A stretch of 64,000 bases of DNA. Origin: an uncultured virus (IMG/VR IMGVR_UViG_3300030098_001091). Taxonomy: Duplodnaviria; Heunggongvirae; Uroviricota; Caudoviricetes. The stretch lies in IMG/VR virus record IMGVR_UViG_3300030098_001091. One strand, written 5' to 3'. The translations under genes were made by a program, and so were the position numbers. Below the pieces are notes generated by a model. The model did no database searches and was not told the origin of the DNA. It was given only the letters and a program-made list of their open reading frames with translations. Below, one piece after another: positions 16,105 to 43,932 of the stretch; the stretch's first letter is position 1, and each line of letters begins with the position of its first letter.

Positions 16105-18549
16105 CTATGCAAAGAAGTATTCCGAATTGATAACAGTCTCCAAATCAAAACTACCTTGGGACGGTGGTTCTGGTAAGTTAACTCCGAGATGTCTTCCGAC
16201 ATCATACTTAAACTGCTCAAGACAATTGTACCTATGCATCCTAAGGAACTCTTCTCTTATTAAATCTCTCATAACAGGGACAAAGTTAGGATGACAACCA
16301 TAGGAATCATGTATCATACAGAAGTCTTCGATATCATAACCGATCATGCGGTCGATTGTCAAGAACATATGAGCAGCATCTAAAGAATGAATGTAGTTTG
16401 GTGCGATAGCTTGACGAGCTGACCGAGGATCAGGGTCATCTGTTCGCACAAAGAAATTTAATTCTTTATTATTAAATAATTTTGCTATTGACCTACGAGT
16501 TTGTGTCTTGGTATAATAGTGCATCACCTTGAATCCACTAGGAGTTACCCAAGACAAGTGTTTATTATTACTACTAGCAATATCAGACACTTCCTTTAGC
16601 CAAGCCTTACCACTATTTGAATTAACCAATGTCTGGTCAAGGGCAGCTTTGATTGCACGAGCAAGTTCAACGATAGCACCACCCCTGTTTTCTTTTGGAA
16701 CCCAATCGAGGTGGCCTTCAACTCTGATATACTTCTGAATACCGTAGAATGTAAGACCGTATGCCTCACACATGGTGCTTCTCTTTGTTACGTTACGATG
16801 TATGCCCTCGTTCCAGTGTTCGGAGAACGCCTTTAGCCAAGAGTTTTCATCAGCCTTGAACAAGCAGTAGTCAGTTGTTTTATCAGCAACAAACTGATAT
16901 AGATCTTCTGGTTTATTAGAAGGGGCAACACCAGTTAGGTGTGCAATAGTTTGATCACGCATGATAGCTGACCAGTGTTGGTTACCATTACACTTACCAT
17001 CTAGTTGGACAGGGATATCCGAGCATCCATCTTCTTTCATGACATCAAAGATAGAACTGAGTCGTTGGAATGACTTGTTCTTTTTCTTTGCATCATCAAT
17101 CCATTCTGTATTTTTATAAGGATCTTCTGATATTCTTTTGAGCATGTCCCAGTTGTCATCTACCCACTGGACTCTCTCATCAAACGGCACCTTATCCTGA
17201 TCAAAGAGGTTGGCAAGGTGTACCTTCCTCCAGTACTCACCCTCTTCTGTTAGTCTTCGTCTATTAGCCAAGCGAATAAGACCACGATCAAAATCAGAAG
17301 ACTGGGGAGATAGTAATTCGCAGACGGTGTATCCACGACCACGGAAATCAAGAGTCCACACATGATAAAAGTATTCCCAATCCAGTAAGTCTTCAGCCAG
17401 TCGAATCCGAACGAGCATCCGTCCTCGTTTCTGTTCGTCTTTATACCATTCCCCCCAAGACTCCTCCTTGAGCTGCATCCATTTGGCCTGCTCTTCTTTA
17501 GTCCCATCTATAGGGTAAGGAGCACTGTACATAAACTCCTCGAACGAATAGAAGGGAAGGTTGGCCATGCCTGTGTTGTTTTCGAACAGAGTCTTCATCA
17601 CCTCCAACACCTCAGTGTTGACAGACCATTCGGTTTTCATTACAGCATTAAGGCCACGGAGCACAAGCTCAGAGGGCTCAGAAAATCTCTGTTGTTTCTT
17701 TTCATCACCGAAAAAATTATCTTTGTATCTCTGAACCACCGGCTTGCGTAGGTTGGTATGAATGTAACCACCACTCGCTGCTTCGGTGTGGTCTATAGGC
17801 GGTATGAGCATCGGTCTATAGACTAGCGTAGAGTTTTGAAGTATCTCATGTCTGTTGTGTAGTTCTTTTAATACCTCAGGATGAAACTCTACAAAGGAAT
17901 AGGTTCTATAACTCTTGCGAACCTTAACCTTTTCTTTTCTAATAATAATTATATTAGATGACGCTGCAATCTCCAGCATGTGGTGGCCGAAGCTATGCTT
18001 CTGTCTTGCACTAAGTTTTATATTCTTCTGCATTTTTTTAGCAAAGGCATTACATCTTTTAATAGTCCAGTTCTTAATAAACTTAGATTGTTTCTTCCAA
18101 TCCTGATAGTGATCTTCTTTGGCACGCTGGTATGCAATGATATCACAGGCATCGCTGGCTATTTGTGTTGCTATCTTTTGTGCAAGCGGCGGTGTATGTA
18201 TGTGATCGGAGTACAGGTGACCCCAGAATGAGGGAGTAAACCAGTGGCGAACGACAGCTCGTATCGTAATGTCTGCTAACTTGCGAGCACCTAGCTCAAG
18301 CAAGGGATACAGCCAGTCGGGGGAACGAGATGCGCCCTCACATATGGTATCAATCCATTGTTGGTAACTCTCTTCCAGCTCACGAACAGATGAATCGATA
18401 AGACATTGCTCGGGGACACCCTCATCTGGCGCACGATCATAGTCTGACCAGTAGCGGTGTCTACCATACTCAAGCATGTCTTGCTCATACCGTAGCTGCC
18501 CGTTGTGCCGGGCTAACTGAACGTCTTCAGTTTCTGCATCCCATATCAT
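16105..18549 (-). CDS. T7-type single-subunit DNA-directed RNA polymerase (RNAP-1)
   Basis: PMLIPP, LDFRGRGY, motif A LDGKCNGNQH, DLY, motif B RNVTKRSTMCEAYG, WVTPSGF, APNYIHSLDAAH, motif C IHDSYG. Confidence 0.97.
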   Translation of the reverse strand: MIWDAETEDVQLARHNGQLRYEQDMLEYGRHRYWSDYDRAPDEGVPEQCLIDSSVRELEESYQQWIDTICEGASRSPDWLYPLLELGARKLADITIRAVVRHWFTPSFWGHLYSDHIHTPPLAQKIATQIASDACDIIAYQRAKEDHYQDWKKQSKFIKNWTIKRCNAFAKKMQKNIKLSARQKHSFGHHMLEIAASSNIIIIRKEKVKVRKSYRTYSFVEFHPEVLKELHNRHEILQNSTLVYRPMLIPPIDHTEAASGGYIHTNLRKPVVQRYKDNFFGDEKKQQRFSEPSELVLRGLNAVMKTEWSVNTEVLEVMKTLFENNTGMANLPFYSFEEFMYSAPYPIDGTKEEQAKWMQLKEESWGEWYKDEQKRGRMLVRIRLAEDLLDWEYFYHVWTLDFRGRGYTVCELLSPQSSDFDRGLIRLANRRRLTEEGEYWRKVHLANLFDQDKVPFDERVQWVDDNWDMLKRISEDPYKNTEWIDDAKKKNKSFQRLSSIFDVMKEDGCSDIPVQLDGKCNGNQHWSAIMRDQTIAHLTGVAPSNKPEDLYQFVADKTTDYCLFKADENSWLKAFSEHWNEGIHRNVTKRSTMCEAYGLTFYGIQKYIRVEGHLDWVPKENRGGAIVELARAIKAALDQTLVNSNSGKAWLKEVSDIASSNNKHLSWVTPSGFKVMHYYTKTQTRRSIAKLFNNKELNFFVRTDDPDPRSARQAIAPNYIHSLDAAHMFLTIDRMIGYDIEDFCMIHDSYGCHPNFVPVMRDLIREEFLRMHRYNCLEQFKYDVGRHLGVNLPEPPSQGSFDLETVINSEYFFA

Positions 18550-23765: not shown

Positions 23766-24400
23766 TCTGTATCTAAGGGATACCAGAGTCAAGGTCGATG
23801 GGTAAACTATTCCCATAAGCCATAACGACAAGCCATGCTTGCTGGTAAGTTGGTATTCAACTTGCCGTCTGACTGCTGCTCCGCATTGATCCGCCCTAGC
23901 TGGGTGCTCACGTTGCTTTGCAACACCTTTACCTCCTAGCAATCCAAGGTATATTCAGTCACAACTACTGCATAACGTTTGCTCTCTACGTTACACAGTA
24001 TCTCTGATATCCCTTAGGTACAGAAAAGGGGTGGGGTTTTGATATAGCAGACCCCATACTGCCGATAGAGTTTCTGGTTTCATTCGCCCAGTCGGACCAT
24101 AAACCAGACGGTCATCAACCGAAAGGTCCAGTCGGGAGTAGCAGTTTAAATCGTCATTAAGAAGATCAACATTTACATCTTCTGCTCAGGACAGAGGTCG
24201 GCAATTCGTCTCCTATTAACCTTACGACCACCTCCAGCAGCCGGATCCTCCTATTCACCTTCGCTGGTAAGGGAGGTCATCATCACACTCCAGCGGGGTA
24301 TACGGGCTTACGCCCCTAGGGTACACCCACCTTGGCGGATGTACCCTAGGGACGGGCGTGTGTCCTTCTGTAGTGGACCACACGCCACGTCTCCGTGGGT
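23766..24400 (-). ncRNA. Candidate large structured non-coding RNA(s)
   Basis: 22-bp inverted repeat (23767-23788 / 24002-24023) enclosing several hairpins, plus further stems up to about 24390, including a 20-bp hairpin at about 24309-24354. G-U pairs in the internal hairpins favour the minus strand. No convincing long ORF. Confidence 0.5.
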
Positions 24401-24409
24401 TGGGTTGGG

Positions 24410-24592
24410 TCAGGCTTTGGCGGCCCGACGTTCGAGCTCAGCAAGAGCCAGCTCACGCTTCTCGTCGCTGGTGTTGTCCATCGTGGCGATGTTCACCAAC
24501 TGGTGCGTGTCGGTCTTGCTGTAGTCAACGACCTTGGTCTTGATGCCGAGGCTCTTGCTGACTGCTGCGATACGCTTGTCGAGATCCTTCAT
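24410..24592 (-). CDS. Small hypothetical protein (60 aa)
   Basis: MKDLDKRIAAVSKSLGIK...ELERRAAKA; AAGGA precedes ATG 24592. Confidence 0.5.
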   Translation of the reverse strand: MKDLDKRIAAVSKSLGIKTKVVDYSKTDTHQLVNIATMDNTSDEKRELALAELERRAAKA

Positions 24593-24728: not shown

Positions 24729-24925
24729 TAGACCAAAGTGTACCTAGGGTATACCTAGGGTAAACCTTTATTATTATTATACTATCATATACCTCTAGTC
24801 TACCTAGGGTATACTATATACTCCACCTATACCGCCCTACTATATATGGTATACCTGTAGACCCGTGGTATACTACATATGGTAGACCCCCATAGACCGT
24901 ATACTATACCTTATACCTCTATACT
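24729..24925. repeat. Array of short TATAC/TAGAC/CCTAGG repeats
   Basis: About 12 TATAC, about 5 TAGAC/GTCTA and 3 CCTAGG copies at roughly 10-20 nt spacing in a non-coding stretch. Confidence 0.7.
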
Positions 24926-25634: not shown

Positions 25635-25639
25635 CAGCA

Positions 25640-27490
25640 TCAATTGCAGATCCGAGATTCTGTGGTGAATCCGATCTTCTTGCAAGCGTCAGGGAACAAG
25701 TCAATCAAGGCCTGAGAATCCGCCTTGACATAGGTCAGGGCATCGCCAACGGGACAGCCGCCAGCGTCGTGGATCCCATACATGTTCCCACCATGCACCG
25801 ACATGTCCTTGAAAGTCAGGACAGTACCACATCGGTGCTCGGCATCCTTCATATGGAGCCGACGTGCCAGCAAAGCTGTACCAGCGTCGGACAACTCAGC
25901 TCGATCCACACGGCATGACCCATTGGTCTCTTTACCGGTGACATGGCTGATGTAGGATGTGTGAACCTTCCAGTTGCCCTTCTTAGAGCTACCCGTATCG
26001 TGCTGCTCGACGTTGGAATCGTCGGAAGACTTGAAACGATACGGAGACATGAGGAGGTCACCGCCAATGAAACGCTGATCCCAAGGAGTGTCATCCCACT
26101 CCTTCAGTGCATCCCTGTTAGCCTTACTAAGCGTAGGGAAGCAGTCATTGAACGCCTCAGACAGTTGTTGAGACATCTTCTTCACTTTGGTGTAAACCAA
26201 GAGGTGATGGGGCTCGCCGTGAAGCAAAGCGTTTCGGAGAGCAGCAGGCATCTCGCTAAGATCATCAAGGGATGTGAAGCCCTCTCGGAGTCCGTGCTGA
26301 CCAACAAGTGCGTCAAACACGGGGCCTGCACCTGAGCCATATGTCTTAGGACTGAAGATCTTCTTCAGTATTAGGAGCATTACGCTTGGTGGCAGACTAG
26401 CGAGGAACGGCAGTCCTAGCTCGCGAATAAACGCAAGCAACACTTTACGAGGGTGTTGATACGCCTCGTTCAGCACATCGATGAGTGCCAGTGACAGATT
26501 TGCACCCGTCATCAGCTCGATGAATTTCGGACCCGACCCTTCTGTATCCAGCTCCATCAGGAATCTGGACTGCCGATCTTTCATCGGCAAACGCTCAAGG
26601 CGACTGAACTCTAATGCCGCCGCATACTCATAAGCGCCACAGCCATCCTTTCCAGTTGCTCCCGCCAGCAAAGACGCTTTCGGGTCGGACAGGATGGAAC
26701 CACACCAATCCTTGAGACTGGCTTTACCGGCGAAGTGCCGCTTCAGCCAGCTCTTAAAGAACACCCAGTGCTGGTGGTCAATCGGCACTGGGTACGCCAG
26801 CTCCATCATTGCACGGCACTGTTGGCCGAACATGGGGTGAAGCGTGCCCGCAGACTTAGCGTACATACGCAAAGCCCAACAGAATGTAGACATGGCGACG
26901 TAGAAGGGCTCGTATTCCGTTGCCGTGGCCATTGGCCGTAGGCGATAGGGGTAGAAGCTCTCCTGAGCAGAGAACCGAGTGTTCTCAGTATTGCCCAATG
27001 GAATGTCACCACGCACCTCCCAAAAGAGGTTGTCCATCTCGCGATTCACCACAAAGGGTGTGCCGCTCAACGTCTGGGCGGCTTCGCGGGCAAGCGGTGT
27101 AGGAGACAAGTCAGTCCGTCGGCTGACTCGTGGAGTCCACAGCCCATCCAGTTTGGGTGGGCTAGTGTGGTGGTGCTGGATGATGGGATTAGACTTCTTA
27201 GCCGAGAGCCATACAGCCAGCACTTCTTCCGCTGCTCCCTGCAAGATTTCCAGTCGACGGTCGTATAGGTCCGGACGCTCCTTAAGGGCATCAATAGCTA
27301 CTCCTTGCTGGTAGAACTCTACGAGCTTGGGATTATCGTTCCGAGCATTGCCGGAGCGAAACGCCACATCGATGTCGATGTTTCGTACCTTACCGCTGAC
27401 TGGAGTCAGCAGGTGGTTCTGCGTGTGTCTTTTGACAAGCTCTCGCTCATCAGGGGTCAAACACACACCCGATTTCTTCGATCCGCTCAA
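25640..27490 (-). CDS. Divergent second T7-superfamily RNA polymerase (RNAP-2, about 616 aa)
   Basis: Collinear T7 RNAP motifs: TPFVVNREM, FYVAMSTFCWALRMYA..LHPM, motif A MELDTEGSG, motif B KKIFSPKTYGSG, RLHMKDAEH, motif C GIHDAGG. GGAGG SD lies 8 nt before TTG 27490; the ORF track extends it to 27598. Confidence 0.8.
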   Translation of the reverse strand: MSGSKKSGVCLTPDERELVKRHTQNHLLTPVSGKVRNIDIDVAFRSGNARNDNPKLVEFYQQGVAIDALKERPDLYDRRLEILQGAAEEVLAVWLSAKKSNPIIQHHHTSPPKLDGLWTPRVSRRTDLSPTPLAREAAQTLSGTPFVVNREMDNLFWEVRGDIPLGNTENTRFSAQESFYPYRLRPMATATEYEPFYVAMSTFCWALRMYAKSAGTLHPMFGQQCRAMMELAYPVPIDHQHWVFFKSWLKRHFAGKASLKDWCGSILSDPKASLLAGATGKDGCGAYEYAAALEFSRLERLPMKDRQSRFLMELDTEGSGPKFIELMTGANLSLALIDVLNEAYQHPRKVLLAFIRELGLPFLASLPPSVMLLILKKIFSPKTYGSGAGPVFDALVGQHGLREGFTSLDDLSEMPAALRNALLHGEPHHLLVYTKVKKMSQQLSEAFNDCFPTLSKANRDALKEWDDTPWDQRFIGGDLLMSPYRFKSSDDSNVEQHDTGSSKKGNWKVHTSYISHVTGKETNGSCRVDRAELSDAGTALLARRLHMKDAEHRCGTVLTFKDMSVHGGNMYGIHDAGGCPVGDALTYVKADSQALIDLFPDACKKIGFTTESRICN

Positions 27491-27684
27491 TTGAGTATCC
27501 TCCAATAGTGGATCAAATACACGCTGGGCCGCCGACCTAGCCGACGTGATACCCAGCGATATTGCTTGCATACCGCACTTAAGTGTACGCAAACACACCG
27601 ATGGTTACAACCTTAATGGTTATTCTTCCTCGTCTTCAGTCCTTCCGTAGACTGATCTAGTCTTCACACTGAGGCTTTAGCCTC

Positions 27685-31500: not shown

Positions 31501-34500
31501 CATAAAGTCATTTAAATCATCAGCAATAGATTGCATATGACCTAAGACTTTATTTTGTTTTTCCGCAGAAAGATTATCAAACAGAACACGGGCCGGTCCC
31601 TTGATAGCATCCTTAAGATTTACGTTATCAGAATCAACAGCTAACAAAATTGCAAGGTGTATTCCCTTTAACTGCTCTCCTCTTGATTCGGATATCTTAC
31701 CCGCAACTAAAGCTCTTACTCCACCAAAGATTTTTTCAATCTCATCATAAGTAGAGTGTATACTATTTTGGTGGGTTCGAAGCTTTTCCATGTTTCTACT
31801 TAGTGAGGCTGTTCCTTGAAGATTGGTCCAGCTACCCATTGTCGAAACAATCTGATCATCTAATAGCGCGGTAAACCAGACCGGAATAATATGCATAGCA
31901 TTATAAGTAGCACCAGCACCAGAAGGTCCAACTTGGCCAGTAACAATAAATCGCTTAAGGGTATTATGATCTCCGGTTCCTAAGACCTTATCCAAGATCT
32001 TATCAAACCATTTTGTAAAGGCATTTGCTTTGGCTCCAGCTTTTCGAGAAACCTGATTACCAAAACCTCGACTAGTACCTGTAGAGTCTTTAAACTTTTC
32101 AATAAGTACTTGCATTGCCGCAAGACGTTCATCTGTACTTAATTCCAGATCACCTTCTCTAACTCCTTGCCTCATAGCTTTAATGTCTAAAACTATTTTT
32201 TCCTTTTGATCCGGTCCTATTTTCTCAATAGAGCGCCCGTACTTTTTGTATAAGCGTTGCTTTGCTGAAAAGAATTGATACCTAGTTAAGCCAGTTTCTA
32301 GTATAGTATCATGTTCAGCCGTTAATCCTTGACGAACCATAGTAGAATCAACATCAGGTCTAATAATATTGTGAAGGACATTGTGTCTTTCTACTTGTTC
32401 AGGAGAAAGATTATCAAGTCCCTGTTCAGATAAACTATCGTATTCTTTAACCATTGCTTCAAATACTGCATCGTCATATCTAAATGATTCGTCTACACCC
32501 TTAGTTGAGTGAGTTTCTGTATACTCAGGACCAAACTCAAAGGATTGCCTCAGTCTTTGCTCTGGTGCTGGGGCCAGTAAATGTGTTTGAGAATCAAGAT
32601 CAAATCCAAACAAGCGATTCATCAAGCGGTTTACATCAGGATTTTGTAACTCTTCAGACCAAATAAAACCAATCTTCTCAAAGATTCTTCGCATATAACC
32701 AAAGACTTTACTTAACCAAGGCATAGCATCCTTCAAGACGCTATGTTCTTCTACGGTAAAGTCTTCTTTCAATAAAGTATTAAAATCACCGAGAAGATAG
32801 AAAGACCCAAGAGATGCAATAAACTCATCTACGTTTTCCATCGCATACTTTACTTCAGCTTTAGTATCTGCTGTTTCAATTCCACCATGCCAAGCTGTAT
32901 ATAACTTAGTCATTAAGCTATGGCCCTTCTGATTCATTAAAGCTTCAAATCGGTGGTAGGCAGCTGGGTCATTCATAATAAATTCCATTGCGCCTTGGTG
33001 TGCTAATTCGTGAGCAAGGATCAATACTGGGCTAAGTCTGTCATTGGCTCGACGTGCCTGTCCACCAATTGAAATAGTTCTACGACCAGTTCGTGTATCG
33101 GTATCGATTCTACCGCCACGAAGTTCTTTCATGAATTCTAATTTAAGATCCTGCAAGCCCATTGGGTTGAATAGGTACATATTAACAATAAGCTTTCGCA
33201 TCATGCGAGCCTGTCTCTCATCTATATTACCTTCGTCTACCATGTCTTGGATATTTTGATTAAGTTCTCTGATCGGTCTGAACCCTGTCTCATTAGCCAT
33301 CTCTTCCATTCGTTCGTACTTACGATGGAAGTTTCTCTTTCGGATCTTGGCTCTGCTTCTTATTGAGAAAGCTCTTTGTTCAACTTCAAGAGGATTAATA
33401 TCTCCCAATGTATCCAGCTCCATTTTACCTGAGGGTATATTTAACTGATCATTCACGGCAGATTCTATTGCTTGCTTCGCTAGATACTCTAAGGCAGCTT
33501 CTCCAGTTTTTCCATAGAGATTTTCAATCCGAGTCAAATGGTGGCTAGGAATAGATTCTAAATTCCACAGGTTTTTAGACCTAAGCCATGATATAAAGGC
33601 GCGCTCGGTTGAGGTGGCGTGTCTAATATGTCCAGCCTCTACACTATCTCCCAGATGGTTTAACGCAGCTGTATTTCCTCTATAGGAGACTGATGTACTT
33701 TCCCCTTGTTTAGTAATAATGTCTACAGTTTCCAACTGGTTTATAGTAATCGGATCTTTCAATTCCGCAACCGAAGCTGTGGCATCTCCCTCTTGATTAC
33801 CGTATTCAACCGCTACGGGTATCACTGCCAATTTATCAGCACGGACACCAAACTCATTCCATAATATCATATTATAAAGCGATAGCTGCTTAGACCACTC
33901 TGATTTCTTTTCTTCTCGGATCACGGTTTCTCCGGTATCCGTTTGTTTCTTAGTCTTTACATCGTAGATAGTAATTTCACCGGTTGTTCTATTTCTAGTT
34001 AAGACATCAAACTCACCCCGAAGACCAATCTTTGTATCCATTATCATTACTTTATCGACCATAATCTCATCCGTTTCCAAGATCTTCTTCTTGAGGTCAA
34101 GCATCTGGTCTATAAACTTATTAAACTTTTCTTCAGTATCGATATAAGGTTTGTCTCGTTCTGTTCTATAGGATTCCCAATTAGGTCGTTCTTCAGATCT
34201 GAAGACATCTCTAACCAAGTTGTCAATATTCTCTCCGACAGTAAATGCATTTTGAAGGACAGGATCGTTATTCATTTCTTGAATTGTTTTATCTAATTCA
34301 TTAATCTTAAACTCTAAAGACTTAACAGAAGAATCTGTTTCCGGGATTCCTGATTGGATAAGTTCATCTCTATCTTTTCTAAGTTTAGTTAAAAGATATC
34401 TAGAGTTGGTACGAATAGACTGGGTAACGCTTGTGGCAGGTCCAGAATATGCTTTAAATTCCTCTTGCCTATTTTTAATCCGATCAAAGATAGTTTCTCT

Positions 34501-37500
34501 ACTACTAGCTTCGGGACCAATATCAGACATACTTTCGGGAGAAGTAACCGAATCTTCGTCTATAAGTTGCATCCACTCGAAGGCAAAAGATCTAGCGTGC
34601 CAATAGAATTGGTTATCTCTAATAAACCCATTCTCACTCATATGTCCACTTATTTCATTATGAAGATGCATCATCTCCATACTAATCCTACTAAGCTCTT
34701 CAGCCGAAACTGTTTTCTTTTCCTTACCGATCTCAATAACCCGACCTTCAATCTGAACAGCATAAGTATCCGGATCTAAAAACTGTTGCCAATTGTGATC
34801 CCCGTACCAAGACATTGGGTTTCCTGCATTTTGGAATATAAGTCTAGATCCTAAAGCTATTGCTTTTGCCATAGCAAAACTACTGTCCTTATCTGTTTTT
34901 CTGGCCGCATCAATAATGCCTTGTACCTTATTAATTAAATCATTCTGATAATCATTAATATGTTCGGTTCGCAATCTATTCATTAACTCAACAAGTGGAG
35001 ACAGATGTGCTTCTTTCCATGTACTCCCAAAACCTAAGTTGTTGGTTTCCGATACGCCTCTAGAGTATGAGTCTAAATCTAAAATCTCCATAGGCTTTCC
35101 AGAGATTTCTTTTTTATCTCGAACAAGATATCGGGAATGTTTGCCTGCGTCCATCCTATCTTCAACGGCTGTCATTACTTTTAATAAAGCCTCGCTATCA
35201 ACAACAGCCTTTTCAATCTGAGGCTGCATACTAAATCCTAATGCTTTTTGCATTCTACGGGCATGGGGTTCAGCGTAAACCATTTTCTGATTCTCTGCAT
35301 CCCACTTAGTTCTAATTGCTTTGTTTGTACGACCAGCATTTTCCATATCAACATGTACTTGACTATTACTAATTGTAGCAAACATCAGTAAGACAGATTG
35401 TTTTGTTAACGCAATCTTGAGATTACCCTCAATCTCAGATGGGGTACGAACCAGTATTCCACCCAATGCTCTAGCAAAAGCATTACGAGCAACCATAGAT
35501 TTTATTTGGTCACTTCGAACCGTAGTTCCAGATACATCGGTTTCAATAATAGCCTTTAGTTTGACAAGCATAGTTCCATCTTTATCCTTAGACATAATCT
35601 CTTCTTGCCTTAAATCAAACTCCCACTGTCTCGTTGTAGTCATTTCTTCGAGGAACATCTCAACCATTCGGGTCATATCCTCAGGAAGGATAGCATCCCA
35701 TGTGTTGGGGTTATTAGCCATTAGTTTATATGCACTTCGTACATCTGCTGGACCGTCCCAGTTTTTGAGATACTTAGAAACCACAGCCTCATAGTTTTTT
35801 CCGATAATAAAACGCATAAAGTCTGTGGCATGGTAGACACCAGATTCTAGTACCAATTCCTGAAATTTAATCTTACCTTCTACTTTACCATTGACAGTAA
35901 TAGCTAAGTTTTCTTGCGGTGCTGCTCCCATCTCCTCGTATACTTTAAGCTCCTTGTGAATATCTGTGGGCATAAGAAGATACCCTTCTTTAGTTTCGGG
36001 ATTATAAATCTTAGTTAAAGATTCCAATACCGATTCAGCCTCTTGAAGCTTACCAGCAATTGCCAGTTGATTGATGTCCTTGAATAGATCTAAACGTCCC
36101 CGTACCTTCTTACGAACATTTCGGGAAATCCTAGAAAGTAAATCTAATTCGGACAACCATTTATTTCTTGCCATGATATAATAATTTCTGGCTCTTCCGG
36201 GATTCTTTTGGAGAATATCCCTCTCAACATTACGAGGTCGCCAACCTTCTCTAGCAAAGATAATAGCTTCTCTTTGGAGCCTAGCTGTTTCAGCTACTAG
36301 GAAGAAGTATGGAACAAGAGCTGAGTTTTGATTAAGAAGATCTTCATGTCCGTGTTGTCTTGCGTATGTATAAGCAATATTATGAATCTCTGCTGCTCTC
36401 CAAGCTACTCTTGTGTTTGGATCGTTCTTATAAATATCCCAAAAATCTAATGCAATAGTTTCCGCGTTTGGTAGGGTATCTCTTTTCCATGGAGCGTGGT
36501 ATCCAAAAGCTTCGTGCTTGCTTTCCTTCCCGCCCAAGATAGGATCGTCTTCTGTCATGTTCTCTCGTTTAAAGTTATCAAGATATCCAATTCTCTTTTC
36601 GATTTTATCTTGTACCATTTTTCGATGTATTCGGTTAATGCCTCTATTAAAGAATGCGGCCTTCTTGTGCAAAGGCTTATTAAACATGAATCCCTGCTGT
36701 TCCGCAGTCCTTAATGGAATAAAGCTTCGGTCATCATCGAAGTGACGTGAGTCATGCATTTCGTGTATGTTTACTCTGTTCCATCCACCAGCGTGTTCTC
36801 TAGCCATTTCTTTAGTAAGCCAACCAAAATTCTTTCCATAGAATTCTCTTAGAGTAGGATTCTGAGCAATCATCTGTTCATACTCAGATCGAGAATCAAA
36901 TGTCTCGTGGTTACTCTTACTTGATTCATACATGTCTTCCATTACATTTAAAAGCATCGCTGGTCTATTATCTTCTTGGGTATAGTTAGGGAAGACTTCC
37001 TTAGGCAAAGTCTCAAACTGTGAGTACCAAAGGAACTCGTTTAGGTCCATTAAATCTGACAGGTGCTGTCGAACATCCTTTGGATCCATTGTTTGATACG
37101 GGTTATCATAACCATCAAGCATACCAAGACTACTGACATTATCGCCCGCACTTAAATATTCTTCTAAAGCTACTAGGAACTTAGCTGGGTCGCCGGTTGG
37201 GTCTTTGCCCTTCATAAACTCCATAAAATCTTTATACTGTTTTCCATCCTTCATAGGATCTGGAAGTACTGCAACTCTACTAAAGGAAGTTGCTGTGTGA
37301 TTTGGAATATGACCACCTACTGCCAGACCTCTATGGTGATCTGCTGTTGGACCAATGCGACCATAAAGGAACACATTTCCAAGACCGCTTAACTCGTCTT
37401 CAGTCCACTCAACATTAAAAGCTTTGGCAACATCTTTGGCCCGATCCATATTAATACGGAAGTGGGAAGCCGTCATCATATTCAAGCCTCGGAAGAAAGC

Positions 37501-40500
37501 AAGTTCCTTGTGGTTGAGGTCGTTTTCGGGGAGAAAGATCTGATGGATCTCATTCCATCGGGCATCATTCATATCCATGTTACCATCTTCTTCCCACTCA
37601 CGGAATTTGGCTTCGGCTTTTGCAAGCATCGGTGCATAGTTTTCTTCGACCGTTTCAATCTTTTGGTTGCTATCTCTAGCAATAATCCTAAGGCGATCTT
37701 TGATAGTTCTTCTAAGATCACTAAGATTATACAATGATTCAGATACAGATCGGTCATCCTCGGGTAGTGCTTCGTCTGTTCTTAATTCAGCTGCCTCGGG
37801 CTGTGTAAACGGAATAGTATGGGTTTCGCCTGTATCTCTATCTATAACTACCACATCAGGAAGTGTTCTTTCTACACCCGGCTTATCTTGACGAATTTCT
37901 CTAGAAACTTGCCTAGCCCGTTCTGCCTTATTAATAAAATCAAGAACTCCTCTTGTCTGGAACTCTTCACTTCGATTGATTGATAAGAATCCGGTCATTG
38001 CATCTTTCATTCCTTGATCGGTAGCGATGACTTGATCTAAGATTACACGGTCATTGAAATCCTGACGCTCGTATAAAAGTTCCCCGAGTGCGATTATATT
38101 ATCCGAAGTTACTGTAACTCCCATTTGCTCCGCTAAAGCCTTGACAGCAAGAGTACCCTTACCAAAAGGTTCGTTAATAAACTCTTGTCTAAAGTTGTCA
38201 AGACCACCACCATACATACGACGCATAACTGGGGGCTTAAATACATCTCGTAATTTACTAAGTACTGCCTTTTCTTCCGCACTTATATCTTCTCTCTTCT
38301 TCATAGCCTCAAAGTCTTTAGTACTTTTAATATCATACTTCCCAAGAAGATCGAAAGCTGCTTTAAGTGGACCCATTCTTTGAACTACTAAAGCATTTCC
38401 ATTAGCAGAAATTGCGTCTGCCGCAGCTAAAGCACCTTTAATATAGAAGTCAGATTCTGAAATTGAAGATCTCTTAGAATTAAGAATGGTTGTTCTTAGC
38501 CCATACTTTACTAAAGACTTATAGATGGTATTTGCTTCTTTATCTATATTGCCATTGTCATCCATCACCTCGATTGGCTGATTACCATAAGGGGTATTTG
38601 CAATATGCTTCCAATTATCTGAACCCGTAGTAGTCATAACCGCTAAAGTATTCAAGTGGTTTTCATGAATACCGCTATTAACTCTGTCATAGTAATTTGT
38701 CCTGTCATATAAGAACTCATTAACTTCATCCAAAGTAATAGTTCTATCACCAATTACAACTTCTCCGTTGACAGTTACATCAAGGAATTGCTGTGGATTC
38801 ATGTTAAACTCGTCCATAAGCCATTTGTTAGTGGACTCTATACTTGCTTCAATAATAGACGATGCCAAAGGAGCCATCTGTTCTGAAGCAAAAGCTTGGG
38901 CAATAACATCACCCGCGTAACCACGAGGAACAATAACCTCACTACCGGGACTAATAAATGGAATGTTTAGCTGATTTGCAAAGTCTCTATTAAAACGAAT
39001 CCGACTATCTCTGGCTCCAGCTAAACTATCTTGGACAAACATCTGAGCAAGGTTTGGCAAGTCCATCATAAAATGCATTGCGAGATCAATAGCTTTTTCC
39101 CTGTTCAACAAGCCTTGCTCTAAGCTACCGCCTACCCATCGGGGAAAGATCATAAACTTAGTCATATCTTCAGATGGATCTGGGGTTCCTTCTTTGCGGA
39201 ACTTTTCCCGCCACTTAGCAGCAGCGTCCCGTTGTTTTTTGCCCCAGTTTTTAACCGTAGGTCTGTTTAAATCATCATCCCATTCAATATGTCTTAAAAC
39301 TTCTTTTTGTCTCTGATCAGTTTGCCACCTCATAATAATACGCTTTAAATCAAACGATCCTAAGGGGGCTGAGTGATTAATTCTTCCAGCAGCAGCAACG
39401 AATTCAGGATTGCCCTTTCTATCCATATCAGACTCTGTACCAATTAATCCGTGCTCTCCAGTAACAAGCTTGTCAGCTTGCACTGTGATTTTCTCAAAGG
39501 CAAAGTAATCTACAATAGCTCTACCAACTAAAGTGGCAGGAGCCCAATCAATAGTACCGTCACCGAACGAAGATAAAGTTACAACCCCAGAATCGCTATC
39601 ATCAGCAAAGACATCTAAGCTTTGCATAATTTTATTAAACGTCCTATCAATATTAATAGGCTCTCCGGGTACATACTCCACACCTAGTTTTTCCATGATC
39701 TTTCTAGCACGGGGATGAGCTCTACCACCCTCCATAAATAACTGCTCTTCTAATCTTTCTCTAATAGACTGCTCAACAGTTTGTGTATATGCTTCTCTAC
39801 TTCTGGTAACTTGGGATCTATCGAAGAAACCAGTTTCCTCTCGAACATCTAAGACAAACCCAATCGTCCTTGCTTGGGATTTATTCCAATCCCTAGAGGC
39901 ATCTTCTAAATCCTTTAATAATTCCACCGCCAATTCGAAATTTGAAATCGAGTCGGGCTTAGTTTCACTATCTAACTCTGACCTCATAATCTCCCCAATA
40001 AGATTATCTAAAGTCTGAGCTCTAGTTCCTTCTAACTTTCTATACACCCTACCTCGATAAAGATCAACGATATCCATTACCTTTTCCAGATTATAACGCA
40101 ATGATCCAGCGTTAATATGTCTTTCACCAATTTCCATCTCAAGACCAGCACCATCAAGAGCTGGCTCAAACAGCACAAAGGGGGCCAATCCAAGCTGCCA
40201 GAAATATTCAGGCATTGTTGAATATACTAATGCAGCGTGTACACTACCGTCGCTGTTTCTTGCAGTCGACTGAAGAAGAGCCTTAAGTCTGGAATTCCAT
40301 TCAGCCCAAGCTTCGGCTTCTTTGTTTATGTCTCTTCTGATTTTTTTAAGAGCTTCTCCCGGATTACTCTCATTCAATAGGTTATCCCAGTTTGTGTAGG
40401 GAAGGTTATCTAAATCAGCATCAGTAAGCTCAAGGAGCTGGGATTTGAGATGTTCTTGTAGATTTGCAGGAGCAACAAAAGACGTAAGAGATCCTAGTTG

Positions 40501-43500
40501 CATATCCTTAAGAAGTTTATTAATTAATGATTTTGTTTCCCCAACAATACTTCTAGCTTTATCTATAGGAATTGTTCTATTCAACCTTTTTGTTTTTTCT
40601 GTGTGGTCTAAAGTATTATGATCAGCAACTTTCTTCTTCTTCCATTTAGAAATATCAGGAAGCAGTTGCATTAATTCCTTAACAGTAATATTACCCTCTG
40701 CTTCTAAAGCATCCAATCTTTGCTCTGCACCCGCTATAACAATTTCAAAGTGCTTAGTGTCCCGTTGAATTTGATCAATAAGACCACGATGTGAAACGAC
40801 AGAGCTAAATGATACAACAGCCGACTGCTTAGCTCGTTCTTCTGAAAGTTTAGACAACTCCCTCTTATAATCTCTATGGACTTTTTCAAACTTCTTAACA
40901 GAGGCTGTATGATTTTTGTAGTCATCCGTTTCCTTAAAGTCCTGTTCTACTTTAGTGGCAAGAGAATTGAAACTATTAATTAATTTTGTAAATGAAGACC
41001 CCCTCTTTGACGATCCACCTGTCAATTTAGTCTCCGGATCTCCTTTTAATATTCTATTAATTTCATTCTTAATTGTCTGTCTAATCTTCAGGTGGGTTGT
41101 TCCAGACTCTACTAATTCGAGTAGGCTTTCTAGAGCGGAGATAACCCCCGGCATGTTATCTAAATCTTCAATTTTAATTGTTTTCTTAATCTTATCTGGC
41201 ATCGGCTTTCCGGTTTCTGGATCTATTTCCATAAACGGAACAAGACGCAATGCACTTATCGGCCTTACCAGTGCCAGATATTGGTCTACCTCAGCACCCC
41301 CTGCTTCTTGAAAAGCTTTATAGGTTTCCAGAAGTCGCTTTCTTAATTCTATAACCTCATCACCTAAAGCTCTAACGACAGGATCAGGATTAAGCTGGGC
41401 TAGGAAAGCCTGCTTATCTATATTTAATTTCTCAAGCAGATCTTTAATTCTTCTTTTTGCTTCTTTGAAATCCGCAATCTTTTCGCGATGTAGCTTGAGC
41501 TTATCTTTTAACTCTCTTCTGCGTTTTAAGAGATCTTCTGAAACGGCATCCCTACCTTTGGTTTCTCTAGTCCTTCTAATTTGACCAAGAACCTCAGCCC
41601 TTTCGGTTTCTGTTTCAGCCATCTCCTCTGTTTCACGTCTCGAATCTTCATCGATTTGATTTGATACTTCTTGAGCTGTCTGTTCAGCATCAACGCTCTG
41701 TGTTACAACATCGTTTGTTGGAGAACCTTCCTGTACCGCTTCTCCTGTAGTGGGAATTCCCGCAGCGGTAGCTTCTGCACGAACCTGATTAATAGTCTTA
41801 ATAGCCTCGGCATCAACTTCGGTCTGTTTAGTCATTAACTCATGAGCATAATCTAAACCAGCATCAAACCGTTCTTTTTCAGTCGCACTATCCCAATCAA
41901 CTTTAGACCCATCCTTACGAGTAATCTGAGAATACTTCTTCTTTGTTCCACTTAATATATCAGGAGGTAAAAGTCTAGTCCACTGCTGTTTATCTTTAAT
42001 GTTCTGCACATATTGGGCAGAAGTAATGTGTGTGCCTGTTCTTGCGGATTCAGCAGCAGCTGCATTTTCCATATCTGAGATATGTTTGTTCCATCCCCGC
42101 ATTTGGGTAATAACCCTATCGACATCAGGACCATGCTTTGCGGTTATTTTGTCGTGAAAGGTTCCTTGCAAGGTTGATAAAGTATGCTCTAAAAACTGAG
42201 CTGGAGATAACGAAAACTCTCCGTGAATTTGTAAAACCTCGTTTGCTGTTTCTATTAATAAATCATGAAAGTCCGAATCATTTAACCCAGATAAATGTCT
42301 AATAGAAGACAGCCCAAGACTAAGCCTGTCAGATGCTCCTTCCCCAGCACCTCGGTTTATATCCGTTATAGCAGCTTGACCCAAGTCTAAGTTAAGTCTA
42401 CTAGCTCCGGACACACCATCTACTGGAGAAGCATTTAAGGTTCGATTAATAATCCTATTTAATTCCCCACGCTTACGAGTAATTTCTCTAGTCCGTTTAA
42501 CATAGTCGGGGTGACTTACGGTTTGCCAAAAGTCTACTGTTTGGTTTATCCAGCCACCAGTTCCTTTTGCCTTAGCGTTATACCACTTCTTCGCTGTCCA
42601 AGCTATAGGCAGAGTACCTGCACCCATAGCGGTACCAAAAACAGGGTTAATAACAGGAGATAACAGAGCTTCAAGTATTCCCTCTTCCTTAACCTTGCCC
42701 CAGTCAAAACCATCCTGCAATCCCATATTCTGTTTTCGCCATTGGTTACCGATTTCTGCCAAAGACCCAGTAATAGCACCCTCAGCCATATCCGAAACAC
42801 GATTCAGTGGCCACCTAATTATCCGACCTGCTTCTCTAAAATCCTTACCTGTTGCTTTTTTAATTCCCTTGGCTAGTAAGTGAGGCCCCACTCTTTCTGG
42901 AAGATAGTTTACCAATCTCCTAGTCATATCACCAACAGCCGCTAGCCTTTCACTAATTCCAGCTTTACCTGTAATACTTCTAGCATTCTCCATTCTGTGC
43001 AATACCTGCATGAATCTTTTCATCCGCAAAGCTTGCTTAGCAGTCTTAGCAGCTAAAACGGTAGATGTAAGAGCAGCTCCAGCAATGACCCCAACACCTG
43101 TTACAGATAGACCGGCACTAATAGCCATACTTGCAACTAAATCAGGATCGTTAATAATACCATTTATAGTTAGGTTTGATGCAAAATTCCACAACTGATC
43201 CATATCAGTAGCAGTTGATACCCAGTTTCCATAAGCCTGAGCAATCTCCATCTGTCTGGATGTGTTGGAAATAGTTCTAAAGAAATCATAAGGATTCTTT
43301 GTATCCTTAACTATTTCTTTTAATGCCTCTTCCCCACCTAACTGCATCGCAAAGAAATTGTAATTATCAAAATCTTTTTTCCTAAATTCTACTAATGCTT
43401 GGCTAGGTTTAAACGCATCTCCAAAATCGAGATTTAATAAGTCCTCAACTCCGCTAGAAAAAGAATTAGCAACAGGTAAAGTTTGCTTATCAAAACCTGA

Positions 43501-43932
43501 AGAGAACATAGAGATTGCGTTCCACCTGCTAAAATCTTTTGTTTCCCCTATTATTTCTCTAGCTCTAGATCCAACATCTAGCATCCCCCCGCCATCAAAC
43601 TTCAGTAAGTATGACAGGTCACTAGCTAAATCCTGTTTAAAAGCTACGTTATCTGTAGTCCAACCTCCCGCATAATCTCTACTCATCGCCTCGCTTTGGC
43701 TTCTCGCGAAAGGCATAAAACCAGTCATCTTTCGGTTTTGAGAAATCTCTTCCCCTCTATTCATATAGTAGCCGCCTACGTCTGGAGAGGATAACGACTC
43801 CGCGTGTTGCGGGCCCCACTCTAAAGAAGCCCAATGCTTCATATACTCCTTAGCGCGATCTGCATTCTGTCGAGATATATCTAAAGCATCTGGCTGCCAC
43901 GGGAGCGGATTACCAAAAAATTCTAAGGTCAT
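28594..43932 (-). CDS. Giant internal virion protein (5112 aa) with putative virion RNA polymerase, PD-(D/E)XK nuclease and zincin domains
   Basis: Last of the internal-virion genes. Contains YYDRVNSGIHE, SDFY and RDVFKPPVMRRMYGGG (RNAP-like), GLRGEFD..IYDVKT..QLSLY (nuclease) and ILAHELAH (zincin). Confidence 0.75.
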   Translation of the reverse strand: MTLEFFGNPLPWQPDALDISRQNADRAKEYMKHWASLEWGPQHAESLSSPDVGGYYMNRGEEISQNRKMTGFMPFARSQSEAMSRDYAGGWTTDNVAFKQDLASDLSYLLKFDGGGMLDVGSRAREIIGETKDFSRWNAISMFSSGFDKQTLPVANSFSSGVEDLLNLDFGDAFKPSQALVEFRKKDFDNYNFFAMQLGGEEALKEIVKDTKNPYDFFRTISNTSRQMEIAQAYGNWVSTATDMDQLWNFASNLTINGIINDPDLVASMAISAGLSVTGVGVIAGAALTSTVLAAKTAKQALRMKRFMQVLHRMENARSITGKAGISERLAAVGDMTRRLVNYLPERVGPHLLAKGIKKATGKDFREAGRIIRWPLNRVSDMAEGAITGSLAEIGNQWRKQNMGLQDGFDWGKVKEEGILEALLSPVINPVFGTAMGAGTLPIAWTAKKWYNAKAKGTGGWINQTVDFWQTVSHPDYVKRTREITRKRGELNRIINRTLNASPVDGVSGASRLNLDLGQAAITDINRGAGEGASDRLSLGLSSIRHLSGLNDSDFHDLLIETANEVLQIHGEFSLSPAQFLEHTLSTLQGTFHDKITAKHGPDVDRVITQMRGWNKHISDMENAAAAESARTGTHITSAQYVQNIKDKQQWTRLLPPDILSGTKKKYSQITRKDGSKVDWDSATEKERFDAGLDYAHELMTKQTEVDAEAIKTINQVRAEATAAGIPTTGEAVQEGSPTNDVVTQSVDAEQTAQEVSNQIDEDSRRETEEMAETETERAEVLGQIRRTRETKGRDAVSEDLLKRRRELKDKLKLHREKIADFKEAKRRIKDLLEKLNIDKQAFLAQLNPDPVVRALGDEVIELRKRLLETYKAFQEAGGAEVDQYLALVRPISALRLVPFMEIDPETGKPMPDKIKKTIKIEDLDNMPGVISALESLLELVESGTTHLKIRQTIKNEINRILKGDPETKLTGGSSKRGSSFTKLINSFNSLATKVEQDFKETDDYKNHTASVKKFEKVHRDYKRELSKLSEERAKQSAVVSFSSVVSHRGLIDQIQRDTKHFEIVIAGAEQRLDALEAEGNITVKELMQLLPDISKWKKKKVADHNTLDHTEKTKRLNRTIPIDKARSIVGETKSLINKLLKDMQLGSLTSFVAPANLQEHLKSQLLELTDADLDNLPYTNWDNLLNESNPGEALKKIRRDINKEAEAWAEWNSRLKALLQSTARNSDGSVHAALVYSTMPEYFWQLGLAPFVLFEPALDGAGLEMEIGERHINAGSLRYNLEKVMDIVDLYRGRVYRKLEGTRAQTLDNLIGEIMRSELDSETKPDSISNFELAVELLKDLEDASRDWNKSQARTIGFVLDVREETGFFDRSQVTRSREAYTQTVEQSIRERLEEQLFMEGGRAHPRARKIMEKLGVEYVPGEPINIDRTFNKIMQSLDVFADDSDSGVVTLSSFGDGTIDWAPATLVGRAIVDYFAFEKITVQADKLVTGEHGLIGTESDMDRKGNPEFVAAAGRINHSAPLGSFDLKRIIMRWQTDQRQKEVLRHIEWDDDLNRPTVKNWGKKQRDAAAKWREKFRKEGTPDPSEDMTKFMIFPRWVGGSLEQGLLNREKAIDLAMHFMMDLPNLAQMFVQDSLAGARDSRIRFNRDFANQLNIPFISPGSEVIVPRGYAGDVIAQAFASEQMAPLASSIIEASIESTNKWLMDEFNMNPQQFLDVTVNGEVVIGDRTITLDEVNEFLYDRTNYYDRVNSGIHENHLNTLAVMTTTGSDNWKHIANTPYGNQPIEVMDDNGNIDKEANTIYKSLVKYGLRTTILNSKRSSISESDFYIKGALAAADAISANGNALVVQRMGPLKAAFDLLGKYDIKSTKDFEAMKKREDISAEEKAVLSKLRDVFKPPVMRRMYGGGLDNFRQEFINEPFGKGTLAVKALAEQMGVTVTSDNIIALGELLYERQDFNDRVILDQVIATDQGMKDAMTGFLSINRSEEFQTRGVLDFINKAERARQVSREIRQDKPGVERTLPDVVVIDRDTGETHTIPFTQPEAAELRTDEALPEDDRSVSESLYNLSDLRRTIKDRLRIIARDSNQKIETVEENYAPMLAKAEAKFREWEEDGNMDMNDARWNEIHQIFLPENDLNHKELAFFRGLNMMTASHFRINMDRAKDVAKAFNVEWTEDELSGLGNVFLYGRIGPTADHHRGLAVGGHIPNHTATSFSRVAVLPDPMKDGKQYKDFMEFMKGKDPTGDPAKFLVALEEYLSAGDNVSSLGMLDGYDNPYQTMDPKDVRQHLSDLMDLNEFLWYSQFETLPKEVFPNYTQEDNRPAMLLNVMEDMYESSKSNHETFDSRSEYEQMIAQNPTLREFYGKNFGWLTKEMAREHAGGWNRVNIHEMHDSRHFDDDRSFIPLRTAEQQGFMFNKPLHKKAAFFNRGINRIHRKMVQDKIEKRIGYLDNFKRENMTEDDPILGGKESKHEAFGYHAPWKRDTLPNAETIALDFWDIYKNDPNTRVAWRAAEIHNIAYTYARQHGHEDLLNQNSALVPYFFLVAETARLQREAIIFAREGWRPRNVERDILQKNPGRARNYYIMARNKWLSELDLLSRISRNVRKKVRGRLDLFKDINQLAIAGKLQEAESVLESLTKIYNPETKEGYLLMPTDIHKELKVYEEMGAAPQENLAITVNGKVEGKIKFQELVLESGVYHATDFMRFIIGKNYEAVVSKYLKNWDGPADVRSAYKLMANNPNTWDAILPEDMTRMVEMFLEEMTTTRQWEFDLRQEEIMSKDKDGTMLVKLKAIIETDVSGTTVRSDQIKSMVARNAFARALGGILVRTPSEIEGNLKIALTKQSVLLMFATISNSQVHVDMENAGRTNKAIRTKWDAENQKMVYAEPHARRMQKALGFSMQPQIEKAVVDSEALLKVMTAVEDRMDAGKHSRYLVRDKKEISGKPMEILDLDSYSRGVSETNNLGFGSTWKEAHLSPLVELMNRLRTEHINDYQNDLINKVQGIIDAARKTDKDSSFAMAKAIALGSRLIFQNAGNPMSWYGDHNWQQFLDPDTYAVQIEGRVIEIGKEKKTVSAEELSRISMEMMHLHNEISGHMSENGFIRDNQFYWHARSFAFEWMQLIDEDSVTSPESMSDIGPEASSRETIFDRIKNRQEEFKAYSGPATSVTQSIRTNSRYLLTKLRKDRDELIQSGIPETDSSVKSLEFKINELDKTIQEMNNDPVLQNAFTVGENIDNLVRDVFRSEERPNWESYRTERDKPYIDTEEKFNKFIDQMLDLKKKILETDEIMVDKVMIMDTKIGLRGEFDVLTRNRTTGEITIYDVKTKKQTDTGETVIREEKKSEWSKQLSLYNMILWNEFGVRADKLAVIPVAVEYGNQEGDATASVAELKDPITINQLETVDIITKQGESTSVSYRGNTAALNHLGDSVEAGHIRHATSTERAFISWLRSKNLWNLESIPSHHLTRIENLYGKTGEAALEYLAKQAIESAVNDQLNIPSGKMELDTLGDINPLEVEQRAFSIRSRAKIRKRNFHRKYERMEEMANETGFRPIRELNQNIQDMVDEGNIDERQARMMRKLIVNMYLFNPMGLQDLKLEFMKELRGGRIDTDTRTGRRTISIGGQARRANDRLSPVLILAHELAHQGAMEFIMNDPAAYHRFEALMNQKGHSLMTKLYTAWHGGIETADTKAEVKYAMENVDEFIASLGSFYLLGDFNTLLKEDFTVEEHSVLKDAMPWLSKVFGYMRRIFEKIGFIWSEELQNPDVNRLMNRLFGFDLDSQTHLLAPAPEQRLRQSFEFGPEYTETHSTKGVDESFRYDDAVFEAMVKEYDSLSEQGLDNLSPEQVERHNVLHNIIRPDVDSTMVRQGLTAEHDTILETGLTRYQFFSAKQRLYKKYGRSIEKIGPDQKEKIVLDIKAMRQGVREGDLELSTDERLAAMQVLIEKFKDSTGTSRGFGNQVSRKAGAKANAFTKWFDKILDKVLGTGDHNTLKRFIVTGQVGPSGAGATYNAMHIIPVWFTALLDDQIVSTMGSWTNLQGTASLSRNMEKLRTHQNSIHSTYDEIEKIFGGVRALVAGKISESRGEQLKGIHLAILLAVDSDNVNLKDAIKGPARVLFDNLSAEKQNKVLGHMQSIADDLNDFMNVLIDRKKSIGDWGNAATNKVGWKFNEHSAEGLESLRDSLSEMFIAKLRDSDYIDPVSLFALGYLPDFGDSASMVKEMEALDPNFRKVLIEYIAYHSDEQNIELGWQGLKPKGNKVLNETEAQKTVADFQTNLMRRLRDGELKAIRETQEGLHSFMRQLTRGNIAWAHLSQEGVDVSAMRRGQNDVITGSNRSGDFEQRLMKLYKPGKSDRHAQAIGWMAPEDKVAPFKFRRKNPIDVHVYNLINRAGMQMYLPNDAWFVPSVAVAATLDSTILDNIVTHPTSLINDYMKGIADEVTELMLMIDNFEIYGTIGDALNLFAEANTDASWRNMDGTQIDRIAAENINDSITTLRDKYKYIRGIRQTQQPHDPWKDFFVEIAPGITKIAFGGNLSLATITVEYAMNTLTSALGPQGWRGFFKALTALGPAALGTEEFKETSRDLLDLIGVMTQAHVPDYDRPLLQASSGNKALGKTANFIDGWGNQMMRPSQWIMGAMATSRAQIFRKSVFELMQSGKLTKLVAILNDPKQSKLTIKKERDGYVNFALDEQGQLMEGKFKQSDLVLPDPMALEKHMKDAGINPRKYGRVITYMLRAGFLDASAYPRLTSLLNDFNNKKEKGTYSPNQIRNYLSKTDTLANREEYHKSLDVIGGLKIMEKAFVNEILVNPNAFDINTDDARSERLFEIYRRYGMLFNSQLIMRNANHLGLTAMGVRLITMCALDLTYMMLLRMASGDEWEDIMEDLEDSPTAFFMTYGFRLPIMGRYLNMIGEFLTGLTVENPASRTPGAFISAAGGMSMLNNLRAFVTKMIGGELENTDWINAMRNMPFIGDAMVRLPLHVLTDSPASRSSRRTGSPNLAGGMFRHPTHSLDHTTDEAMRMIIEEMGLRHPNWQQHLMAEQAQRGFDMGRPQAEPPQPVRGPESPVQPVQEQEAPQPTPEPETAETASPDVVGQIGQQAPALEIPDSDQLA

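Follow-up and report, generated by a model that had tools for sequence, protein, structure and literature searches.

Two distinct T7-type RNA polymerases and a giant protein with polymerase-like motifs in a T7-like phage genome

Introduction

T7-like phages are the textbook example of a single phage RNA polymerase (RNAP) that takes over from the host RNAP, and phage N4 is that of a programme in which an injected RNAP is succeeded by a second RNAP of the phage. The N4 programme is run first by the virion RNAP (vRNAP) gp50, then by RNAPII, composed of gp15 and gp16, and then by the host RNAP. To our knowledge, a plan with extra polymerases that include one carried in the virion is otherwise known only from N4, and the full-text literature searched, which leaves most subscription journals outside, contained no description of a T7-like phage that has either a pair of T7-type RNAPs or a virion RNAP.

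Here, we analyse a stretch of 64,000 nucleotides from an uncultured marine virus (IMG/VR record IMGVR_UViG_3300030098_001091; the whole stretch is called the window) that carries genes for two RNAPs, referred to as RNAP-1 and RNAP-2, and for one giant protein. An earlier note on this DNA had proposed three distinct single-subunit RNAPs. It is established that the T7-like chassis bears two distinct T7-type RNAPs, and the evidence for a third, inside the giant protein, consists of short motifs. The reading set out below as a whole, comprising two T7-type RNAPs, an ejected giant protein and a possible third polymerase region, is in our judgement likely to be correct. The presence of two T7-type RNAPs in one T7-like genome means that the T7 and N4 strategies are not restricted to separate families.

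Results and discussion

A T7-like genome on one strand

The window is a nearly complete genome (~66 kb) of a T7-like podovirus with its genes all on one strand: the minus strand holds every large open reading frame (ORF), and because a contig with a length of 66,722 bases carries the same giant protein the window is taken to be a permuted assembly that covers almost the entire genome. The T7-like chassis claimed earlier is borne out by a Pfam scan of the window proteins, which identifies a T7-type portal, nozzle, tail-fibre N-terminus, terminase, primase-helicase and family A DNA polymerase (Pol A), together with a class II ribonucleotide reductase (RNR) and a DUF932 protein. Along the direction of transcription, the capsid, tail and terminase genes are followed by five cysteine-poor genes, the last of which is the ORF of the giant protein, then by small membrane proteins, RNAP-2 with small early genes and, finally, RNAP-1, the replication genes and the portal. 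In the nearest record (G001; 54 kb) RNAP-1 is present at 98% identity and the matched portion of RNAP-2 at 95%.

RNAP-1

16105..18549, minus strand: RNAP-1, T7-type single-subunit RNAP, 814 amino acids (aa); PF00940 8.3e-78, phrog_414 3.9e-169

RNAP-1 is identified by its sequence as an ordinary T7-type RNAP, as the earlier note had claimed, and lies at the classical site ahead of the replication genes. Its PF00940 score is 262.6 bits against a gathering cut-off of 22, the phrog_414 match spans residues 16–814, and all four motifs are canonical (DFRGR for T/DxxGR, DGKCNGNQH for motif A, RNVTKRSTMCEAYG for motif B and IHDSYG for motif C). A tblastn search matched 2750 phage records, all at below 60% identity, and the best matches among those listed are Autographiviridae RNAPs (~26–28% identity).

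RNAP-2 and its family

25640..27490, minus strand: RNAP-2, compact, highly divergent T7-type RNAP, 616 aa; TTG start behind GGAGGA; family of 25 relatives

The second RNAP proposed in the earlier note was retained with its start: in an alignment with relatives that are 70, 67 and 53% identical, the TTG at 27490, preceded by GGAGGA, comes out as the start codon. Homology at the profile level identifies RNAP-2 as a genuine T7-type single-subunit RNAP. HMMER, run exhaustively against 1.84 billion representatives, returned 25 relatives at E ≤ 0.001, mostly of 550–660 aa, and within the resulting 27-sequence family alignment the identity to RNAP-2 drops to 17%. At E ≤ 10 the profile of these 27 sequences retrieved 24 entries from the PDB. 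Without exception, the best 17 (E ≤ 3.4e-5) are single-subunit RNAPs, headed by human mitochondrial RNAP (1.6e-11) and yeast mitochondrial RNAP (4.2e-9 over ~410 positions) and with N4 RNAPII gp16 (6dt7_B; 9.8e-6) and T7 RNAP (1.9e-5) as the phage matches; the other seven (E ≥ 0.19) are unrelated proteins. In a strict profile, limited to 13 sequences (E ≤ 1e-11) to exclude contamination, mitochondrial RNAPs occupy places 1–10 (~7e-4 to 1e-3), and two flagellar-hook chains rank behind them (E 0.0087 and 0.024).

Hidden Markov models (HMMs) of the family matched eight of eight T7-like RNAPs (6e-17 to 3e-9 with the A3 HMM) and none of nine N4-like vRNAP domains at significant scores. The profile comparison with T7-type and N4 RNAPs that the earlier note had called for came out positive for RNAP-2: hhalign gives 98.7% in local mode (E 3.7e-16, 405 columns) and 99.5% in global mode against an eight-sequence T7-like profile. 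Against the N4 subunits it gives 66% for gp16 (E 5.6e-5) and 6.8% for gp15. A four-sequence profile of RNAP-2 had no match among PDB sequences, and in hhalign against single T7 and N4 sequences the shallow profiles A1 and A2 reached at most 1.6%.

Some results weigh against the assignment of RNAP-2 to the T7-type RNAPs. RNAP-2 alone has no match in Pfam (at E ≤ 0.01 or even E ≤ 10) or PHROG, PF00940 is touched by just three of the 27 sequences in the family (best 0.00023), there is no counterpart of T7 R627, the Arg four residues before the motif B Lys, and an AlphaFold2 model built with four sequences reached a predicted local distance difference test score (pLDDT) of just 39.6.

By tblastn, the family (RNAP-2 and members P0015, P0017 and P0020) has no match in 50,697 deposited phage genomes. 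At ~600 aa and under the Pfam threshold, it could provide minimal RNA polymerases for use in enzymology and for transcription in vitro. The loci of the distant relatives P0009, P0010, P0012 and P0015 were not found in our searches; P0015 (22% identity) lies on a contig of 63,265 bases, a size class like that of this phage.

Catalytic residues and architecture of RNAP-2

Compared with the T7/Autographiviridae RNAPs (PF00940), of which RNAP-1 is a member, RNAP-2 has the TxxGR motif, motif A, motif B, the H784 region and motif C in the same order, but differs in being 616 aa long and under the Pfam threshold. In the alignment with T7 RNAP (in a residue numbering which we take to be the standard one, the letters having been checked against the T7 sequence), FCWALRMYAKS pairs with MDWRGRVYAVS, ELDTEGSGP with FDGSCSGIQH and IHDA with IHDS. 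The Asp residues of motifs A and C, the Lys and Tyr of motif B, the Arg of TxxGR and the His784 equivalent are all kept. Nine residues are invariant in 13 family sequences (R208, D315, S319, G320, Y384, H546, D549, H574 and D575), and eight columns of the 27-sequence alignment are conserved at 90% or above (M1, R208, R226, D315, G320, K376, Y384 and H574).

RNAP-2 corresponds to T7 residues 419–837. Because ~200 residues precede TxxGR, against ~425 in T7, it is a compact enzyme in which most of the T7 N-terminal domain is missing, and Pfam finds no match in it to the T7-like N-terminal domain PF14700. It would thus keep the palm and fingers catalytic set without most of the N-terminal promoter-opening domain, as in the N4 RNAPII heterodimer. 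The likeness to N4 RNAPII lies in a compact T7-type RNAP that is without the N-terminal domain, with 616 aa approximating the total size of gp15 and gp16 (269 + 404 aa); the difference is that N4 has two subunits and RNAP-2 is a single chain. N4 RNAPII is reported to be active without a T7-like N-terminal domain (PMC4496689).

The absence of the R627 equivalent and of most of the N-terminal domain, together with an atypical composition (a G+C fraction at third codon positions, GC3, of 0.61), would also suit a decayed or repurposed paralogue that has lost RNA polymerization. We regard this as very improbable, since the catalytic Asp pair, Lys, Tyr and H784 equivalent are kept in a family that extends down to 17% identity, N4 RNAPII is described in PMC4496689 as active although it is without that domain, and RNAP-2 sequence occurs in an RNA library. 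In that library, a marine metatranscriptome, three contigs are at least 99% identical to the window and all lie within RNAP-2 (25683–25949, 26388–26542 and 27153–27394); the library was picked through this stretch and DNA carry-over is possible, so that these contigs are no proof of transcription. Two further RNA runs gave no coverage of the 20 kb compared, and uncovered parts are no sign of silence.

The giant protein as a probable ejected virion protein

28594..43932, minus strand: giant protein, 5112 aa, probably an ejected internal virion protein; single ORF, one Cys, relatives of 5133 aa
43949..50538, minus strand: four cysteine-poor genes upstream of the giant gene (247, 341, 229 and 1385 aa, with 0, 0, 0 and 1 Cys), candidate ejection/core operon
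33802..34128, minus strand: PD-(D/E)XK nuclease-like domain of the giant protein, residues ~3269–3377; PF12705 3.6e-5, phrog_298 exonuclease 1.5e-5
32998..33012, minus strand: HExxH (HELAH) of the giant protein, residues 3641–3645; sole HExxH in the protein, HEFSH in the relative

The giant gene of the earlier note is present and forms a single ORF, which closes a block of cysteine-poor genes that comes after the terminase. Cysteine makes up one of its 5112 residues, one of 5133 in the giant protein of a relative and none of the 3500 in N4 vRNAP. The five consecutive products encoded from 50538 to 28594 contain two Cys in 7314 residues, against 1.4–3.5% in the enzymes of the phage. The four products before the giant protein gave no Pfam or PHROG match for those scanned.

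In PMC11445570, cysteine suppression is described as conserved in the ejection operon of Schitoviridae, and gp73, gp72 and gp71 (the vRNAP) are given as functional equivalents of T7 gp14, gp15 and gp16. The block in the window resembles these genes of Pseudomonas phage DEV and T7 in being a cysteine-suppressed run with a very large last protein (PMC11445570). It differs in that no sequence similarity was found and in its place after the terminase. Going by position and the cysteine rule in PMC11445570, the four upstream genes are candidates for an ejection/core operon. In its position and its near-absence of Cys, the giant protein itself matches what is expected of a virion protein ejected in the manner of N4 vRNAP. 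Most likely it is an internal protein that leaves the particle together with the DNA and corresponds by position to T7 gp16 and N4 vRNAP. The likeness to N4, a giant and nearly cysteine-free protein placed with ejection genes where the N4 virion protein is cysteine-free, is set in a phage that differs from N4 in its T7-like chassis and in having an additional full-size T7-type RNAP.

The giant protein has few homologues. A search among proteins of near its length gave two matches, one among shorter proteins none, and one among viral contigs a single locus. Metagenome contigs yielded five giant loci in only three lineages (100/95%, 72% and 58% identical); L008 and L009 are 99.9% identical to each other, and the 72%-identical locus stops where the candidate polymerase region described below begins. 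The N-terminal 1499 aa had no phage match by tblastn. The giant protein does match Gp47 of crAss001, a 'putative RNA-polymerase subunit' that is also very large, with 26–29% identity over ~150–165 residues; this similarity is confined to the PD-(D/E)XK-like domain (Gp47 residues ~1708–1868). A putative zinc-binding motif is mentioned for the C-terminal part of DEV vRNAP in PMC11445570.

Polymerase-like motifs in the giant protein

36613..39615, minus strand: candidate polymerase region of the giant protein, residues 1440–2440, with A-, B- and C-like cores inside
38671..38688, minus strand: motif A-like DRVNSG, D1749–G1754, 146 aa before motif B
38203..38250, minus strand: motif B-like RDVFKPPVMRRMYGGG, R1895–G1910, 23.3 bits
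37108..37122, minus strand: motif C-like MLDGY, residues 2271–2275, resembling the vRNAP form IFDGM

The earlier note had placed RNAP-like motifs at about 37100–38700. Three conserved cores are indeed bracketed there, and motif B exceeds chance, but the chain of four motifs is marginal. The A-, B- and C-like cores are in canonical order and conserved in a 57%-identical relative (L001), as is RFNR at residue 1646. On balance we consider the presence of a Pol A-type third polymerase domain in the giant protein slightly favoured, and that the protein is an active virion RNAP somewhat less probable than that.

Motif B carries most of the signal. Its pattern, R-x3-K-x7-Y-G, is present in the giant protein of the window (RDVFKPPVMRRMYG) and scores 23.3 bits there and 16.8 bits in the relative, using matrices built from three reference families only (vRNAP, T7-like and RNAP-2). 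Shuffled sequences reached this score in none of 2000 cases for the window protein and in five of 2000 for the relative, and the combined score of motifs B and C in none and three of 2000, respectively. A scan of real open frames, 56,916 residues in all, gave eight motif B matches of at least 12 bits: the giant protein and seven known polymerases. Those trained on or close to the training set are N4 vRNAP, RNAP-1 and two RNAP-2 homologues; those outside it, besides the giant protein, are N4 gp16 and two DNA polymerases of the Pol A family. Motif B of the giant protein is non-random. Leave-one-family-out controls recovered four of four anchors in T7 RNAP and RNAP-2 and three of four in full N4 vRNAP (0/200 shuffles each).

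The other two cores are shorter. N4-like vRNAPs have the motif forms EADGxTNG, RGIAKNPLTITIYGSG and IFDGM, and because they use IFDGM the C-like core MLDGY resembles the vRNAP form rather than the T7 form. It is the sole match to a vRNAP-type core in the giant protein, is conserved in the relative and scores 13.8 bits with a vRNAP-only matrix. DRVNSG is one of two pattern-conserved D-x3-[SN]-G sites in the 5112 residues and is weak in the motif matrices (4.1 bits). IHEMHDS (residue 2392), which lies outside 37100–38700, was considered as motif C and rejected as it is not conserved in the relative. The crAss-like two-barrel virion RNAPs are marked by a DxDxD metal site in a double-psi beta-barrel; the sole DxDxD of the giant protein (DADLD) is conserved and at chance frequency (~1.4 expected by estimate). 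When a protein atlas was queried with the region, a cluster of N4 vRNAP domains ranked top (0.82) and PF00940 clusters came next, which we treat as a lead only.

A number of results count against a polymerase in the giant protein. It has no polymerase family in Pfam (even at E ≤ 10), PHROG or PDB sequences; vRNAP, T7-like and RNAP-2 HMMs give at most 2.7 bits, with −1.5 bits or lower for vRNAP. The profile comparison that supported RNAP-2 failed here, with hhalign below 1% against the vRNAP, T7-like and RNAP-2 profiles (0.5% for vRNAP). ExDGxxxG has no match in the giant protein and is found in nine of nine vRNAP controls. The score of the full four-motif chain is reached by two of 300 shuffles for the window and 26 of 300 for the relative, the TxxGR and A anchors shift between runs, and the relative has YK where motif B expects YG. 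T7-only matrices are equalled by 155/300 and 277/300 shuffles, and RNAP-2-only matrices by 83/300 and 84/300 (window and relative giant proteins). An AlphaFold2 model of residues 1440–2440, built with two sequences, has a pLDDT of 38.3, and tblastn of the motif region gave only three matches, at E 7–8.

Taken at face value, these results would suit a giant protein without any polymerase domain: a very large ejection or effector protein with nuclease-like and zincin-like parts, in which the motifs are coincidence or belong to another fold, and with host RNAP starting the programme through RNAP-2. This is a serious alternative, to which we give a little less than an even chance. Every profile and family test is negative, ExDGxxxG is absent, the A and TxxGR anchors are unstable with the relative's chain score lying within the range of shuffles, and four of five pairs of true vRNAPs align over 140–429 columns, compared with 52–110 columns, out of register, for the giant protein. 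It is opposed by the strength of motif B, for which the seven other matches of at least 12 bits are all polymerases, three of them untrained, and by a C-like core that is unique and conserved.

The negative tests are, in addition, underpowered at this depth, because controls with true vRNAPs also fall. The vRNAP and T7 HMMs miss each other (at most 4.9 bits), and the hhalign value of vRNAP against T7-like RNAPs, 73% with eight or nine sequences per side, drops to 0.5–8.8% when two vRNAP sequences are used (five pairs). Foldseek searches with the low-confidence RNAP-2 and giant models retrieved nothing at E ≤ 0.001 and unrelated helical proteins only; this result says nothing about the giant protein, because the failed model of RNAP-2 also retrieved no RNAP.

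Motif B also occurs in DNA polymerases of the Pol A family (17.1 bits for the DNA polymerase of the phage itself and 13.6 bits for that of N4), which would allow the region to be a Pol A-type nucleotidyl transferase other than a promoter-specific transcriptase, such as a DNA-pulling motor, a DNA polymerase or a primer-making enzyme. This seems unlikely: the Met four residues after the Lys and the K-x-P-V-M form are those of T7-like RNAPs (LUZ100 and Stappia phage SI01), unlike DNA polymerases, and no exonuclease or DNA polymerase family matches the candidate region.

If the motif region is a polymerase, it would represent a new lineage, because it is without ExDGxxxG and without Pfam vRNAP matches. 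In PMC10654107, ExDGxxxG is the motif that defines and filters N4 vRNAPs. The giant protein also differs from N4 gp50 in length (5112 against 3500 aa) and in having no profile similarity to it. A true polymerase here would be a second, independent virion RNAP lineage and would make the origin of N4 vRNAP from a gp16-like ejection protein testable.

A possible transcription programme and candidate regulatory elements

24814..24829, minus strand: 16-mer TAGGTGGAGTATAWAG, candidate phage promoter; other copies at 5904–5919 and 51578–51593
27576..27636, minus strand: conserved non-coding block of ~60 nt, 86–146 nt upstream of RNAP-2, near-identical in L001

The polymerases might be deployed in turn. 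The giant protein would be packaged and ejected with the DNA, and it may hold a third polymerase in its motif region; RNAP-2, the first large gene of the GC-rich left-end module, would act in the early or middle period, and RNAP-1 would act later. An N4-style cascade may go further, with a new virion RNAP lineage in the giant protein transcribing the left end to give RNAP-2 and then RNAP-1, with little or no use of host RNAP, in a lineage that links Autographiviridae and Schitoviridae. We hold this cascade to be doubtful, if conceivable, and its order and its independence of host RNAP, both proposed in the earlier note, are inference. A start by host RNAP through RNAP-2, as expected for a giant protein without a polymerase domain, finds no sigma-70-like site upstream of RNAP-2 in a crude scan.

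Two elements may be regulatory. The 16-mer TAGGTGGAGTATAWAG occurs in the window as two exact copies and one with two mismatches, all on the coding strand, one of them 20 nt before the RNR start. It recurs with one mismatch in L001 (12774–12789), at the place equivalent to the intergenic copy at 24814; in a shuffle control, 6/100 gave at least four matches at up to three mismatches. The block at 27576–27636, whose flanking DNA is not alignable between the window and L001, is a candidate early promoter or leader. An 18-mer search found no large promoter family.

A 52-nt element with a GC-rich hairpin is present in two copies (27684–27735 and 27928–27979) flanking a small membrane-protein ORF. 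It was rejected as an N4-style hairpin promoter, with one copy fitting an intrinsic terminator (a 13-pair stem and a T-rich tail) and the element being absent from the relative.

Other features of the genome

The left-end module (24000–28000) has a GC content of 0.52–0.53, compared with 0.38–0.49 in the rest of the window, and GC3 is 0.61 for RNAP-2, 0.60 for a 215-aa ORF and 0.33 for the giant gene. A matching overall contrast (0.52 against 0.41) is present in the relative, and the GC feature is therefore old.

The nozzle protein (56126–61201) is 1691 aa long and its Pfam nozzle match spans residues 1132–1683 only, leaving ~1100 N-terminal residues unexplained. Two small ORFs after the giant gene (28248–28583 and ~27985–28161) have hydrophobic stretches, and one of them has a weak match to phrog_1193 'hemolysin' (E 0.0044); both may be lysis genes.

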